Origin: a virus
Taxonomy: Duplodnaviria; Heunggongvirae; Uroviricota; Caudoviricetes
Virus record (IMG/VR): IMGVR_UViG_2724679236_000005
Location: 1 to 19,843 of that record
Length of the DNA: 19,843 bases
Reading direction: 5' to 3' (one strand)
The notes under the pieces are model-generated. The model had not been told where the DNA came from. It saw only the letters and a list, made by a program, of their open reading frames with translations, and did no database searches. This document shows positions 2,218-19,843 of this stretch, in pieces (within the stretch, counting starts at the first letter, position 1; each line of letters opens with the position of its first letter). A program made the position numbers and the translations under genes.

Positions 2218-3717
2218 TTAGACTGTTTCTTTAAAAAGAGGGGCCAGAGCTTCAACTGTGTAATCATTATTAATGCGGTACATTAACGTAATTGTTTGTG
2301 CCGGGGATTTCGGTCCAAAGTCAACATTAATATAAAGATTACCAGCGGCCAGACTTTCTTTTGTATTTAACTCTTCATCTAACCACGCCCGTCCTCCGTT
2401 AATCGCGCCCTGCTCCTCTAATTTATGCAGATACGCGTTTATCGACTCTACAACGTCTGTTCCGAGGTGCAGGTCTATCGGGCGATCAATAAAATCGGTC
2501 ATCATTGCCCGGGCTATTGAATCTTCAATTACGTCAGCTGTCCGACGAACGCACTCGAAAGACCATTGAGGGCTGAGGCTGCACAGATAGTTACCCCAGT
2601 GCCTAAACCCGTCATAGCGAATAATTGTGCTGACCTGGCTGGCGTTCAACAGGTTCGCTGTGCAGTTTGTCTCACCAATAATAAAATCGTCGACTTGTTC
2701 AAGCCCTGTAACTCCGTAGATATTCTGGTTCGATTTACTCCACCAGAATCCTTTTTCATTATCAATTCTGGCTCGCAAACCAGCAGCGATAGCTGAATAC
2801 GGACGAGATAACCCACTGACATCACTCGTAGAATAAACGCGAGGGCGTAAAATTTCCATCCTGGCGCCATATCTCTGACGACGATTAACAACGTCTGTGG
2901 GTGTAGCGCCTCGCGGTGAATCTATATACCCAACACCGCGTAATTTATTTGTCACGACCTCAAGTTGTTCGGCAATATAATCGTTGGCGCTATAATCAGG
3001 AGCGATTAAAATTCTCGGCGTTACTTGATTTATTTGCGCAGACGTCAATAATGCGTTAATTCCGGTAACGACATTTTTCCTCATTTTTGTTTCGTCGCTG
3101 TCTTCTTCAACGCGAACCACAACAATAATGGCGTCTTCCTGATTTAGTATTTCAGATACAGCAGGCGGGAGGGTACCGTACCACCCGAGCAACTCAGATT
3201 TTTTTTTGCTTCCTGCGATTACCGTCGGAATATTGCATGGGAAAGACTCATCTTTACCACCTGATAAATTTGTTGGAGGAAGGGCGAATACAGTACCCGT
3301 TCCTGCGTGATCACCACCGAAAGTGACATTAATAGATTCTCCCAGTGGAAGACCTTCTTTATATTGCTGATTTTGATCAGCCAGTTTTGACGGTGTAGTC
3401 GCGCCGTCTGTTGTCAATGTTAATTTTCTCGAACCATCGGGTAGCGTGCTATATCCTGGAGTGGCTACACTCCCGTTAATGCCGACATTGACGATTTCGA
3501 CAATCCAGTTGTTTCCGTCGGCCCCTGGCATCACTGTTGAAAACTCAACGAGATTATCTGCGAGTTCTGAACCCCATAATAGAAACGATCTGGCGGCGAT
3601 GCTGGCGTCGGGCGCTGTGCCAACAACACCGATTACTGACACGTCGACGGTGGAAATTTCTTTTGTGCCGTCGTCGTATTCAAGCGTGCGCGGACCGTGC
3701 AAAAAATTAGTGCTCAT
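2218..3717 (-). CDS. Contractile tail sheath protein (P2 FI-like)
   Basis: 499 aa; motifs AAGLRARIDNEKGFWW and IIRYDGFRHWGN match conserved P2 FI sheath segments as recalled; ATG at 3717 with weak SD. Confidence 0.9.
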   Translation of the reverse strand: MSTNFLHGPRTLEYDDGTKEISTVDVSVIGVVGTAPDASIAARSFLLWGSELADNLVEFSTVMPGADGNNWIVEIVNVGINGSVATPGYSTLPDGSRKLTLTTDGATTPSKLADQNQQYKEGLPLGESINVTFGGDHAGTGTVFALPPTNLSGGKDESFPCNIPTVIAGSKKKSELLGWYGTLPPAVSEILNQEDAIIVVVRVEEDSDETKMRKNVVTGINALLTSAQINQVTPRILIAPDYSANDYIAEQLEVVTNKLRGVGYIDSPRGATPTDVVNRRQRYGARMEILRPRVYSTSDVSGLSRPYSAIAAGLRARIDNEKGFWWSKSNQNIYGVTGLEQVDDFIIGETNCTANLLNASQVSTIIRYDGFRHWGNYLCSLSPQWSFECVRRTADVIEDSIARAMMTDFIDRPIDLHLGTDVVESINAYLHKLEEQGAINGGRAWLDEELNTKESLAAGNLYINVDFGPKSPAQTITLMYRINNDYTVEALAPLFKETV

Positions 3718-17311: not shown

Positions 17312-17579
17312 CCTGTTGAATGTGTGCCGCCTTGAAACAAAAAGGCGACCTCTCATTTAAGTAAAACGTCTCTTACATCAGGTACCAGCTCTTTGGCACA
17401 TTGCGCAGTTGTTTTTTATACGTCGGCGAGCTGTTGCGAAGCTCAGTCCCTGCGCGTCACACCATTCTTTCGGTGATACACATGATTTGACGTACTCGGA
17501 CAGGAATCGCTTCTGAAGCTCAAGCCCAGTCCCGGTTTGCTCATGTAATTAAATCCTACTGTATTCTCATGGTGCCCAG

Positions 17580-17921
17580 ATGTCGTCTATGCTTTTAACT
17601 CGAACATTCAATGAAGAGAAATGCTCTATGGTTATTGGTATGCAGGAATCAAAAAATTGCCCTGTATGCGGCTCTGATGCCACATGGACAAATCACGATA
17701 CGTGCTGGAAAATTCATTGCAGTGGTTTTTGCGGTGATTTTTTAATCACAACCACTACGATAAATTATCTGAAGGGCGATGCACTAAGGCGTCTTGATGC
17801 CAACGATCTCTTAAGAGAGCCAACAACACTCAAGACACCTTTAACAAACAAAATCCTTGCTGAATATGCTCGTACAAAATATCCCGTGCACATCTTTGAA
17901 GGTCACTATCCGGGCTATTAG
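17580..17921 (+). CDS. Hypothetical Cys-rich (zinc-ribbon-like) protein
   Basis: ORF with CPVCG...C-x4-C-x3-C cluster; more likely start is ATG at 17628 (GAAGAG upstream) than 17580; stop overlaps the convergent minus-strand ORF by 3 nt. Confidence 0.45.
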   Translation: MSSMLLTRTFNEEKCSMVIGMQESKNCPVCGSDATWTNHDTCWKIHCSGFCGDFLITTTTINYLKGDALRRLDANDLLREPTTLKTPLTNKILAEYARTKYPVHIFEGHYPGY

Positions 17922-18196
17922 TCAGTGCTAGTAACTTTCGGAATAGGAGAAATTTTAGATGTGTGATAATTCATCTCGTCGATAGTCTGAGGAATTAACT
18001 CACTCGCGCCATTTGCAACTGCAACGCGATAATGCGGTCCATTCCATCGACTAAAATCGGAGCGTTCATAAATTACCACCTCATCCCCCACAGAAACCCT
18101 TAACTCCGTGCTACCTACGGGTTCAATAGCGGAATTAGAATAAATGTCTTCAACACGACCGTGAAAAGGCCCACCAACGAACAAAAACTGTGACAT
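17918..18196 (-). CDS. Hypothetical protein
   Basis: 92-aa ORF; ATG at 18196 with AGGA 8 nt upstream; no TMD, no recognised motif. Confidence 0.45.
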   Translation of the reverse strand: MSQFLFVGGPFHGRVEDIYSNSAIEPVGSTELRVSVGDEVVIYERSDFSRWNGPHYRVAVANGASELIPQTIDEMNYHTSKISPIPKVTSTD

Positions 18197-18334
18197 ATAA
18201 TTTCCTATTAAAAAATAACCAGTTAAATCGGCATTTAAAAATATGTCATATTTATGATTCTGTCTTTAGCACCTTTGTGTGGTCAGGTTGCCTGGGCCAA
18301 ATGATCAATCATCAATTCATTAAGATAAATTACC

Positions 18335-18529
18335 CTATTTTCCAACAGGGCATGAAGCCACTGCCCCAGTTGAATCAATACAACCACCGTCCGCAGTGGT
18401 AATTTTCGTACCCGGCGCGATCATCACGTGTTTAATACTGCTGCCGTCAGCGCGAGTCGCTTCGGTGTATGTCGAATGTGTGCAGCCTGCCAGCGTGAAG
18501 AACGCGACAGCTAAGAGAAGTTTTTTCAC
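18335..18529 (-). CDS. Small outer-membrane lipoprotein in the lysis cassette (possible o-spanin-like or Bor/Cor-like)
   Basis: 64 aa; GTG start 7 nt after the endolysin stop with AGGT upstream; signal peptide MKKLLLAVAFFTLAG-C with lipobox LAGC and Thr at +2; two further Cys in the mature part. Confidence 0.6.
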   Translation of the reverse strand: MKKLLLAVAFFTLAGCTHSTYTEATRADGSSIKHVMIAPGTKITTADGGCIDSTGAVASCPVGK

Positions 18530-18536
18530 GTTTTAC

Positions 18537-19016
18537 CTACGCTTCTGAGATAGATTTCTCAGCATTCACCAATGGAAGTGATTGTGGAACATCCGTTTGA
18601 CCTGCTGGCCAGCGATAGCCTGTTACGCGGGAACGAGGAAAAGCTTTGATATTTACTTCATCTGCCTGGTTACCACCCAAAATCATTAAATCCCCGGCGG
18701 CATTTTTCCCGACAACAAAGCCAACGTGACCACCGCCAGACCGAGACAGAATAGCAATGCATCCATAGGCGGGTTCCTTCAGTTCATTACCCCAATCGAG
18801 ATAAGAATTCGCAGACTCAAAACGCGTTGAGCGAATACCCGCACGTTCCAGCATTGCCCCGGTGAAAGCAGCGCACCACGGTGTTTCGTCATCCTTAATG
18901 CCGCCGCGTTTGATATCTTTCCAGTACTGCACAATTTCTGCAGCATGTTGCTTCCCTTTCATTTCCCGAATGCCGAGGTTTTTTCGAGCCTCAATTAGCC
19001 ATTTCGGATCGGTCAT
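18537..19016 (-). CDS. Putative endolysin, Cys/His peptidase type (CHAP/NlpC-P60-like, TIGR02594-like)
   Basis: 159 aa; candidate catalytic Cys in ETPWCAAFTG and His in GGGHVGFVVG; no signal peptide or TMD; sits after two membrane proteins. Confidence 0.6.
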   Translation of the reverse strand: MTDPKWLIEARKNLGIREMKGKQHAAEIVQYWKDIKRGGIKDDETPWCAAFTGAMLERAGIRSTRFESANSYLDWGNELKEPAYGCIAILSRSGGGHVGFVVGKNAAGDLMILGGNQADEVNIKAFPRSRVTGYRWPAGQTDVPQSLPLVNAEKSISEA

Positions 19017-19288
19017 TACCTGTCTCCTGTTATTTTTGAAATATTTCCTCGTGCCCGCCAGACAGCAATACAGATGGTGAGATTGAGAAAGAACTCTGCG
19101 GGATCAACCTGCGTATATTTTCCGTATAAAATTCGTAGGGCTATCCAAGCAGCAGACAGAATCGCCAGGTAAGCAGTTAGTGAGATAAAAAAACGATAGC
19201 GGCCTGTTTTTTGAAAAAACATCAACCGTAGTGCCAACATCAGACAGATAATTGCATTGGCATTGATGAGGACAGAGTGCAGGGTCAT
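19016..19288 (-). CDS. Small membrane protein with three predicted TMDs (holin or antiholin-like)
   Basis: 90 aa with three hydrophobic segments; ATG overlaps the upstream stop; directly upstream of the endolysin gene. Confidence 0.5.
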   Translation of the reverse strand: MTLHSVLINANAIICLMLALRLMFFQKTGRYRFFISLTAYLAILSAAWIALRILYGKYTQVDPAEFFLNLTICIAVWRARGNISKITGDR

Positions 19289-19671
19289 TATTTCATCCCC
19301 TTATCTGATTTCCATAAACGAGCTTGTGACATGATCCGCAACAGTGATGTAACGCTGATTACTGATGCAACCAGTGCACCAATGGCGGGAGATACTTTTA
19401 CTGTTATGGGTGGGTTCAGGTGACTCAGCGCCGCATTCAGAATACCGGTAATGATGGCTGATGCTGTTTCAGCGCAATACACACCACCAACAAACGAAAT
19501 GAGTGCGAAAATAACCTGCTTCCAGAATCGATGCTGCCCAGACGACAACACATAGAGAGCTGCGCCTGCCAGCGCACAGATCATCACTGCAGGTGTTGCC
19601 TCAGGAAATAACGCAGCAAACGTCACCCCCGCCGAGCCAGCAGCAACGCCAGCGGTTAGAGGTTCAGACAT
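19288..19671 (-). CDS. Holin-like membrane protein (first gene of the lysis cassette)
   Basis: 127 aa from ATG 19671 (SD AGGA 8 nt upstream), 3-4 hydrophobic helices, charged C-terminal tail. The track ORF to 19839 uses a GTG inside the terminal repeat and is judged an over-extension. Confidence 0.6.
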   Translation of the reverse strand: MSEPLTAGVAAGSAGVTFAALFPEATPAVMICALAGAALYVLSSGQHRFWKQVIFALISFVGGVYCAETASAIITGILNAALSHLNPPITVKVSPAIGALVASVISVTSLLRIMSQARLWKSDKGMK

Positions 19672-19685
19672 GATTTTTCCTGATT

Positions 19686-19715
19686 CAGAAACGACAAAAC
19701 CCCGCCGTGGCGAGG
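19686..19715 (-). terminator. Putative intrinsic terminator/attenuator in the leader upstream of the holin gene
   Basis: Minus-strand RNA CCUCGC-CACG-GCGGGG (6-bp stem with one G-U) followed by UUUUGUCGUUUCUG, ending 14 nt before the holin SD; position analogous to lambda tR' between pR' and S. Confidence 0.35.
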
Positions 19716-19783
19716 TTCTTAGGGATTTGGCAACATACCAAATTAGCGTTAAATATGGCCTATTTTGTTCGGTTTTGCAAGTA

Positions 19784-19841
19784 TTTGTATGGGTCCACCA
19801 CATATTGCAATTTTTGTTCTCTCTTAAAATATATTCCACGG
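19784..19841. repeat. Right arm of the perfect 58-bp terminal inverted repeat (partner 1-58)
   Basis: Exact reverse complement of 1-58; lies in the putative late leader/promoter region upstream of the holin gene. Confidence 0.9.
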
Positions 19842-19843
19842 GT

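Follow-up and report, generated by a model that had tools for sequence, protein, structure and literature searches.

A conserved lone lipoprotein in the spanin position of an Escherichia coli prophage lysis cassette: a candidate single-component outer-membrane disruptor

How does a phage of a Gram-negative host open the outer membrane when its lysis cassette carries a small lipoprotein gene in the spanin position but no gene for an inner-membrane spanin partner? The question is raised by positions 18335-19671 of the IMG/VR record IMGVR_UViG_2724679236_000005, which was analysed over 19,843 nucleotides (the window). The window is an Escherichia coli prophage whose head genes (Nu1/A/W/B/C/D/E) are lambda-like and whose contractile tail is P2-like. 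Checking its open reading frames gave four tightly packed frames on the minus strand in this region, with the same boundaries as in an earlier note made on this DNA from the sequence alone. The cassette overall is a known kind of system, while the lipoprotein in its spanin slot belongs to an uncharacterised family. On the grounds of position and co-occurrence we suggest that this lipoprotein may be a single-component spanin substitute, an outer-membrane disruptor that replaces Rz/Rz1, and we put the probability of this reading at about 45%. The features of the cassette, in the order of transcription after the leader hairpin, are given below.

19696..19719, minus strand: terminator-like hairpin, a GC-rich 10-bp stem with five GC pairs followed by TTTT
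19288..19671, minus strand: putative holin/antiholin 1, 127 aa, three to four transmembrane domains, ATG start with an AGGA Shine-Dalgarno sequence (PF16931, phrog_198)
19016..19288, minus strand: putative holin/antiholin 2, 90 aa, three transmembrane domains, 1-nt overlap with both neighbouring genes (PF05449, phrog_217)
18537..19016, minus strand: predicted soluble endolysin, 159 aa, cysteine peptidase of the TIGR02594/CHAP type (NlpC/P60 fold)
18335..18529, minus strand: predicted prolipoprotein, 64 aa, GTG start, lipobox LAGC with Thr at +2, in the spanin slot

According to the earlier note the cassette encodes no inner-membrane partner for the lipoprotein, although a spanin pair might have lain nearby, outside the window. 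We scanned every start codon in six frames (three per strand) for lipobox-containing open reading frames, as well as for products of 60-250 aa whose only transmembrane domain is N-terminal. The scan of the window returned no lipobox frame besides that of the 64-aa lipoprotein, and no credible inner-membrane spanin subunit (i-spanin) with a single N-terminal transmembrane domain. The same scan of a 49-kb stretch holding the full-length 40-kb relative of this prophage in E. coli E62 gave no i-spanin either, and the only other lipoprotein there was a 307-aa LprI-family protein of the early region. Thus the missing partner was confirmed both for the window and for a complete related prophage, in which no spanin pair was found. 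Across more than 13 related lipoprotein loci no frame contained a protein with a single N-terminal transmembrane domain that could partner the lipoprotein, and a hidden or nested i-spanin was rejected, as the scans, which took in all frames and all starts, found none in the window, in the E62 prophage or at the related loci.

The scanner was controlled with 17 IMG/VR loci that encode a 53-66% identical TIGR02594 endolysin and no lipoprotein of the present family. Rz- and/or Rz1-type genes were detected in all 17. Both spanin components, embedded or overlapped, were present in 15 and started right after the endolysin, while in the other two (L046 and L060; loci are given by our own L numbers) only one component was flagged. 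The converse is seen in Aeromonas phage phiARM81ld, which has the synteny of the lipoprotein locus L011 (RdgC, methylase, holin and a 65% identical endolysin) but carries Rz/Rz1 where L011 has the lipoprotein. The SP6 and Myduc loci were consulted as comparators for cassettes with an M15_3 endolysin, and their annotations gave no information on spanins. Among phages of Gram-negative hosts about 87% have spanins and some 13% are spanin-less, the BPP-1-like and Vi01-like phages being listed with the latter; in 31 genomes a lipoprotein gene without a linked i-spanin was recorded and left unexplained (PMC6139136).

Members of the lipoprotein family were found at the distal end of lysis cassettes of about 13 architectures, with five holin types and with endolysins of the TIGR02594, M15_3, M15_4 or GH24 families. 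The lipoprotein gene usually starts 2-21 nt past the upstream gene or overlaps it. The main arrangements, each ending in the lipoprotein gene, were as follows.

PF16931 holin, PF05449 holin and TIGR02594 endolysin: the window, E. whittamii L061 and 12 IMG/VR contigs
S-like holin and TIGR02594 endolysin: L011, L012, L078, L081 and L085
Phage_holin_3_1 and TIGR02594 endolysin: L013 and L084
S-like holin and Peptidase_M15_4 endolysin: Citrobacter L003 and Superficieibacter L062
Phage_holin_3_3 and Peptidase_M15_3 endolysin: Salmonella L006, a BPP-1-like podophage prophage in which the cassette is flanked by the scaffold and capsid genes
Phage_holin_3_1 and M15_3 endolysin: L023
Holin only: L019, L020 (11-nt overlap) and L024
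Phage_holin_3_1, a 53-aa membrane protein, GH24 lysozyme and an inserted KilA-N/ANT gene: L079 and L082

None of the approximately 13 architectures contains a spanin. Of the 11 contexts with an identifiable endolysin, about 10 have one of the peptidase type (TIGR02594, M15_3 or M15_4). We take this as no more than a tendency and reject exclusive pairing with peptidase endolysins, because L079 and L082 have a GH24 lysozyme. The lipoprotein travels with the lysis genes across unrelated virion modules, those of the myophage, of a BPP-1-like podophage and of lambdoids with different terminases.

Individual loci also bear on how the gene and its surroundings are exchanged. The prophage remnants L081 and L003 share flanking genes for 282-aa and ~144-aa proteins, the holin and the lipoprotein, and they differ in the endolysin, TIGR02594 in one and Peptidase_M15_4 in the other; the comparison shows a clean single-gene endolysin swap and thus module swapping around a retained lipoprotein. 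In the IMG/VR relative L035 (~3480-3560) the whole lipoprotein gene is lost exactly past the endolysin stop and the sequence is joined into a 92-aa frame, and in another, L032 (~3650), the last lipoprotein codons are replaced, giving a 55-aa product. Both have recombination breakpoints within the lipoprotein gene or at its edge, and the junction that follows the endolysin is a recombination hot spot. The E. albertii-type cassettes of L013 (4199-4447) and L084 encode a second, unrelated lipoprotein of 82 aa (phrog_902, E=1e-23) after a gap of 3 nt. In Superficieibacter L063 (3501-3701) a diverged lipoprotein gene stands alone between a transporter gene and frmR/adh, a neighbourhood that corresponds to the chromosomal site of the Citrobacter prophage remnant with holin, M15_4 endolysin and lipoprotein (L003 6727-8153), and this lone copy may be a relic or a domesticated gene. 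On the contig of a divergent homologue, P0074 (L020, 5426-8204), the tail and holin genes of a tailed phage are followed, a few kb downstream, by Microviridae-type genes (REP_ORF2-G2P, Chlamy_scaf and Phage_F capsid), and the contig represents either an assembly chimera or a tailed prophage with an integrated microvirus next to it.

Among 5.8 billion proteins searched, homologues of the lipoprotein formed 68 clusters, all of 55-84 aa. Clusters with a source name came from Escherichia, Salmonella and Citrobacter only, and the family also occurs in Superficieibacter and includes a few divergent metagenomic members. In an alignment of 25 members the lipobox Cys is invariant and is followed at +2 by T, S, A or M, whereas the signal peptide, the sole hydrophobic segment in every aligned member, is variable. 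The mature part is conserved as THTTYTEATRADGSTVKHIAIAPGTKITTAxGGCIDSTGAxxxCP, and both of its C-terminal Cys residues, C50 and C60, are at least 90% conserved. Between family members synonymous sites are saturated (pS, the proportion of synonymous differences, 0.55-0.94), while pN, its nonsynonymous counterpart, is 0.07-0.25 and the ratio of the two rates (dN/dS) is 0.05-0.16. The family is thus under strong purifying selection, and the 68 clusters, the invariant lipobox Cys, the conserved mature part and the low dN/dS together establish that the lipoprotein gene is a real functional gene and no chance open reading frame.

The family is nevertheless rare. Only 16 matches were obtained in a profile search of 1.84 billion representatives, five of which are divergent lipoproteins of 67-71 aa that keep the core ADG..(I/V)APGT.VT...G.C(I/V)DS.G..C, and members were present in 3 of 185,579 species-representative genomes and in 1 of 50,697 phage records. 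The Prokaryotic Genome Annotation Pipeline (PGAP) leaves the gene uncalled in those RefSeq E. coli records that were examined, as in L001 (NZ_CP022393.1, 7199-7540) and L015 (31397-31591), so that the family is largely missing from RefSeq-derived protein databases; the GenBank phage record ON470624 alone calls it, as 'hypothetical'.

By hydropathy, the lipoprotein of the window has one hydrophobic segment, the signal peptide (residues 1-20), which ends in LAGC with Thr following at +2, and the mature form comprises the lipidated Cys16 and 48 further residues. Two of these 48 are Pro, as against ~22-26% Pro in the outer-membrane spanin subunits (o-spanins) encoded beside homologous endolysins, and four Lys/Arg are balanced by four Asp/Glu to give a net charge of ~0. 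The description in the earlier note of a lone 64-aa lipoprotein with an LAGC lipobox, Thr at +2 and no richness in Pro was therefore borne out in every respect. In E. coli, Thr, Ser, Ala or Met at +2 predicts that a lipoprotein is sorted to the outer membrane by the Lol system, and the protein is predicted to follow this route. Its conserved Cys pair suggests that DsbA-dependent disulfides may form. An AlphaFold2 model consists of four short beta strands at low confidence (predicted local distance difference test, pLDDT, 61; predicted template modelling score, pTM, 0.29) and was too poor for a fold search. No family in Pfam, NCBIfam, PHROG or PADLOC matched the lipoprotein above threshold. YgdI/YgdR, EexN and LPAM_1 were considered and rejected as its family, the matches being below threshold and driven by the signal peptide.

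The lipoprotein gene seems to belong to the late lysis transcript. The first three genes of the cassette overlap by 1 nt at TAATG junctions, and the lipoprotein gene starts 7 nt past the endolysin stop. Its G+C content (0.48) equals that of the cassette, and an AT-rich island (0.38) starts right after it. A consensus scan found no promoter-like (sigma-70-like) site between the endolysin and lipoprotein genes, although such a scan cannot exclude an internal promoter. The lack of a promoter-like site ahead of the gene and its cassette-like G+C content point to a common transcript of the lipoprotein gene and the late lysis genes.

Further upstream, the Q antiterminator gene of relatives ends ~110 nt before the gene for holin 1. 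In the window the hairpin (19719-19696) lies in the leader between the former end of the Q gene (~19786) and holin 1, and is probably a tR'-type terminator that is read through by Q-modified RNA polymerase. Q, a terminator-like leader and the lysis genes make up the classic lambdoid late-operon layout, and we read the region as a late lysis cassette that depends on Q and belongs to a temperate E. coli myophage. Over most of the region, DNA of more than 96% identity is present in 14 complete E. coli genomes, and phage vB_EcoM-705R4 has the same lysis cassette. Beyond ~19775-19786 the window holds the end of an IS481-family element in place of the 3' end of the Q gene, and the last ~70 bases (19775-19843) match the end of an IS481-family element present on thousands of enterobacterial plasmids. 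As this element abuts the cassette where Q is expected, the late operon of the prophage copy in the window may have lost its activator and the prophage may be no longer inducible. On the other side of the cassette, between the lipoprotein gene and a phrog_5191 gene, lies an AT-rich island of ~1 kb (~17312-18334, G+C about 0.38-0.41) that is missing in vB_EcoM-705R4. It encodes a 113-aa Zn-ribbon protein (17580-17921, plus strand) with a sub-threshold match to Lar (restriction alleviation) and a convergent frame of 92 aa (17918-18196, minus strand) without assigned function, and it looks like a moron insertion.

The partners of the lipoprotein in the cassette could be placed in known families. 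Both genes directly upstream of the endolysin encode small proteins with several transmembrane domains that score above the cutoffs of holin profiles. The 127-aa protein matched PF16931 Phage_holin_8 (2.3e-11, 44.4 bits; cutoff 26.4) and the holin family phrog_198 (2.6e-34), and its homologues in relatives are named 'putative holin' by PGAP. The 90-aa protein matched PF05449 Phage_holin_3_7 (2.1e-19, 69.8 bits; cutoff 25.4) and the holin family phrog_217 (2.1e-31). Hydropathy gave three to four hydrophobic segments for the former and three for the latter. The two proteins thus probably form a holin/antiholin pair, each of them being a candidate for either role. The earlier note had listed the two multi-transmembrane proteins among the parts of an atypical cassette; both are indeed holin-family proteins of this kind, but a two-holin module is in itself ordinary. 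The curated phage Pollock has a "holin/antiholin" pair of 124 and 96 aa, the second member homologous to the 90-aa protein, followed by a GH24 endolysin and embedded i- and o-spanin genes, and in a Klebsiella phage the holin pair recurs ahead of the genes for a lysozyme and for a DUF2514 protein, presumably of the Rz-type family.

The 159-aa protein had been credited with Cys/His peptidase motifs, and this was upheld. It matched TIGR02594 (1.6e-40, 138.5 bits; cutoff 70.55) and, barely over the cutoff of 26, CHAP (1.2e-5, 26.2 bits); the family it matches is thus a lytic one, where the earlier note had allowed for a non-lytic assignment. C48, H97, N116 and Q117 are invariant among 26 endolysin homologues, and Cys48 and His97 are the predicted catalytic residues. 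The AlphaFold2 model (pLDDT 83.5) matched the PDB structures of MepS, LytE, a T. thermophilus NlpC/P60 D,L-endopeptidase, CHAPK of phage K and Tse1 in Foldseek, with a probability of ~1.0 for the best matches and 0.9-1.0 for Tse1. A phmmer search of PDB sequences found no solved or characterised close relative, and a literature search on TIGR02594 endolysins found nothing relevant. By family, the protein is most probably a peptidoglycan cysteine peptidase endolysin of the CHAP/NlpC-P60 type. It has no hydrophobic segment, and neither a signal peptide nor a signal-anchor-release (SAR) domain by hydropathy, and would therefore need a hole-forming holin for its export.

Lysis by this cassette could then be envisaged as follows. 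The holin/antiholin pair would time the lethal permeabilisation of the inner membrane, the released endolysin would cut the peptide stems or cross-links of the murein, and the outer-membrane step would be carried out without a spanin. The 64-aa lipoprotein would be produced from the late transcript of the other lysis genes, receive its lipid at Cys16 and reach the inner leaflet of the outer membrane by sorting, and it would disrupt this membrane alone and without spanning the periplasm. A mature protein of ~48 residues that lacks a second anchor is unable to work as a fusogen across the periplasm, and its mechanism would therefore differ from that of spanins. Our preferred guess is that a beta-rich domain, stabilised or oligomerised by one or more disulfides of C50 and C60, builds up harmlessly as long as the murein is intact. 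Once the peptidoglycan is destroyed, the lipoprotein would destabilise the outer membrane either directly or via a conserved host outer-membrane component, the latter route being modelled on colicin lysis lipoproteins, which act through the phospholipase OmpLA. Of this scheme, we infer every step beyond localisation.

Single-component disruption of the outer membrane is the most economical reading because the lipoprotein follows the lysis genes, is mutually exclusive with spanins and seems to ride on the late transcript. The earlier note had offered two possibilities, a non-canonical mechanism of outer-membrane disruption or a conversion or exclusion factor. The comparative context favours the former, since the lipoprotein always ends lysis cassettes and never occurs alongside spanins, and the latter is less favoured. 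Several points weigh against a spanin substitute, however. The proposal is based on position and co-occurrence, that is, on genomic context, and the lipoprotein has no detectable homology to lysis proteins: its PHROG matches were to function-less families at E ~1e-3, its only Pfam match was the lipid-attachment site, and hhalign against the T4 o-spanin PseT.2 gave a probability of 1.7% with the lipobox alone aligned. The mature domain of ~48 residues has zero net charge, is not amphipathic and displays no obvious membrane-active feature, and the low confidence of its model, mentioned above, adds to this. As lysis can do without spanins under some laboratory conditions, a cassette that lacks them need not strictly contain a substitute. 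Moreover, the contexts share common ancestry, so that counts of architectures overstate their independence and the exclusivity statistics are indicative only. Our literature searches brought up no description of a lone-lipoprotein outer-membrane disruptor, and nothing relevant on vB_EcoM-705R4.

The main rival, a serious one although we consider it less probable, is that the gene which ends the late lysis operon is a moron for an accessory lipoprotein, with a possible role in exclusion, receptor masking or host fitness comparable to lambda Bor and Cor or T5 Llp. Its carriers would then have no dedicated outer-membrane disruptor and would lyse by shear, or through weakness of the outer membrane after digestion of the murein, Lpp attachment sites included, by the peptidase endolysin. 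The boundary between lysis genes and terminase is a classic site of moron insertion, and the ~1-kb island with the Lar-like gene, absent in vB_EcoM-705R4, adjoins the lipoprotein gene there. The second lipoprotein of L013 and L084 and the KilA-N/ANT gene that parts the lipoprotein from the lysozyme in L079 and L082 can be seen in the same light. So can its lack of similarity to known lysis proteins and its retention in decayed prophages, in the remnant L024 as well as fixed in the Citrobacter remnant L003 and alone beside host genes in L063, the last two of which hint at a possible benefit to the host. On the other hand, no promoter-like site was found ahead of the gene, which in most contexts lies 2-21 nt from the upstream lysis gene or overlaps it, and its G+C content resembles the cassette and not the neighbouring island. 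It follows lysis genes across unrelated virion modules, whereas receptor-specific exclusion would be expected to track tail genes. No PADLOC model matched, and for known exclusion or virulence lipoproteins of the Bor, Cor and Llp types there was no match above threshold in Pfam, NCBIfam or PADLOC, EexN and YgdI/YgdR being sub-cutoff and confined to the signal peptide. An unrelated moron would not be expected to avoid spanin cassettes, yet none of the ~13 architectures has a spanin, against ~87% of phages of Gram-negative hosts (PMC6139136).

Lysis functions other than that of a lone disruptor are less probable still. A genuine o-spanin with an unconventional or distant inner-membrane partner, which would still span the periplasm and fuse the membranes, would account for a spanin slot that is filled by a small outer-membrane lipoprotein whose periplasmic part has conserved Cys close to the C-terminus; T4 PseT.2 is likewise not Pro-rich and has two essential C-terminal Cys (PMC6139136). 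The partner could be a type I membrane protein, an inner-membrane lipoprotein, a holin-family protein or a host protein, and partners of other topologies would escape current searches (Kongari et al., PMC6139136); in LambdaSo, heavily nested spanin genes were at first missed (bioRxiv 10.1101/2024.01.23.576932). We regard this as improbable, given that no conserved second open reading frame accompanies the lipoprotein in any scanned context or in the complete E62 prophage, that holins and endolysins vary by context so that there is no constant phage-encoded partner, that conservation of the mature part greatly exceeds what the fast-evolving Rz1 family usually shows, and that there is no homology to PseT.2 or to any spanin PHROG. 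Slightly more doubtful again is a regulator or helper of lysis, active in timing, in protecting the endolysin, or in tethering or activating murein degradation near the outer membrane, with a status like that of Mu releasin, LambdaSo Lcc6 or phiKZ gp143. Extra small factors are increasingly found in lysis cassettes, and the link to peptidase-type endolysins, though non-exclusive, is strong (~10 of 11 identifiable contexts). The partner endolysins nevertheless belong to four structurally unrelated families including a GH24 lysozyme, and some holins have no adjacent endolysin, which makes regulation through specific protein-protein contacts unlikely, just as the four unrelated folds make specific immunity to, or inhibition of, the endolysin unlikely; nor would a helper explain the consistent absence of spanins.

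If the lipoprotein does replace Rz/Rz1 in this way, its family might, somewhat more tentatively, form a class of its own among phage outer-membrane disruptors, the third beside spanins and the disruptin, namely a lone lipid-anchored, beta-rich mini-protein of ~48 residues that breaches or destabilises the outer membrane with no inner-membrane contact and is interchangeable with Rz/Rz1 in enterobacterial phages. About one in eight phages of Gram-negative bacteria have no recognisable spanin, and one alternative disruptor, phiKT gp28, has been characterised. The lipoprotein is a concrete, conserved candidate in the tractable hosts E. coli and Salmonella, and makes the opening of the outer membrane by spanin-less phages testable. 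Should it act alone on the outer membrane, it would embody a new membrane-destabilising principle, and could possibly serve as a probe of outer-membrane integrity factors or as a part for engineered lysis or enzybiotic systems.

Compared with known systems, the window resembles phage Pollock and its relatives in its two-gene holin module (about 125 aa and about 95 aa, the second of the PF05449 type) with the endolysin directly after it; it differs in that Pollock continues with a GH24 lysozyme and an embedded i-/o-spanin pair and the window with a CHAP/TIGR02594 peptidase and the lone lipoprotein. With the two-component spanins (lambda Rz/Rz1; T4 PseT.3/PseT.2) the lipoprotein shares the slot after the endolysin and the o-spanin character of a small outer-membrane lipoprotein with conserved periplasmic Cys, its lipobox having an invariant Cys and no Asp at +2, and its Cys pair is reminiscent of the C-terminal Cys residues that T4 PseT.2 requires. 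In contrast to these systems there is no i-spanin gene, be it in an embedded, overlapped or separated position or in another part of the prophage. The protein, moreover, is not rich in Pro, shows no Rz1 or PseT.2 homology and is much more conserved than the usual o-spanins. The unimolecular spanin T1 gp11 is likewise a single lysis-cassette gene whose product has an N-terminal lipobox and a predicted beta-rich periplasmic domain; an assignment to this class was rejected, as the lipoprotein has no C-terminal transmembrane domain and its ~48 mature residues are too short for anchoring in both membranes.

Colicin lysis proteins, or bacteriocin release proteins, are small lipoproteins encoded at the distal end of their operons that permeabilise the Gram-negative envelope alone, through OmpLA, and they are the nearest functional precedent, no other lone lipoprotein being known to act lytically on the outer membrane. 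They differ from the present family in that they belong to a colicin operon and not to a phage lysis cassette, and in a mature part of about 28-33 residues as against 48. None of 25 family members matched Lysis_col or Entericidin in Pfam even at E<=10, and 3 of the 25 gave a weak, signal-peptide-level match to NCBIfam entericidin A (E=0.05). Like the disruptin phiKT gp28, the lipoprotein would be a single small replacement for spanins in a spanin-less coliphage. Unlike gp28, which reportedly has no lipid anchor, it has a lipobox, a net charge of about zero and predicted beta strands, and thus lacks a cationic amphipathic character. The phiKT protein is a cationic amphipathic peptide of the antimicrobial type and the only characterised non-spanin outer-membrane disruptor (bioRxiv 10.1101/515445). 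The lipoprotein belongs with the spanin-less phages that have an orphan lipoprotein, the class of 31 genomes of Kongari et al. 2018 (PMC6139136). That study defined no family and proposed no function for them, whereas the lipoprotein described here is a member of a conserved family, found repeatedly in the spanin position of cassettes of many kinds.

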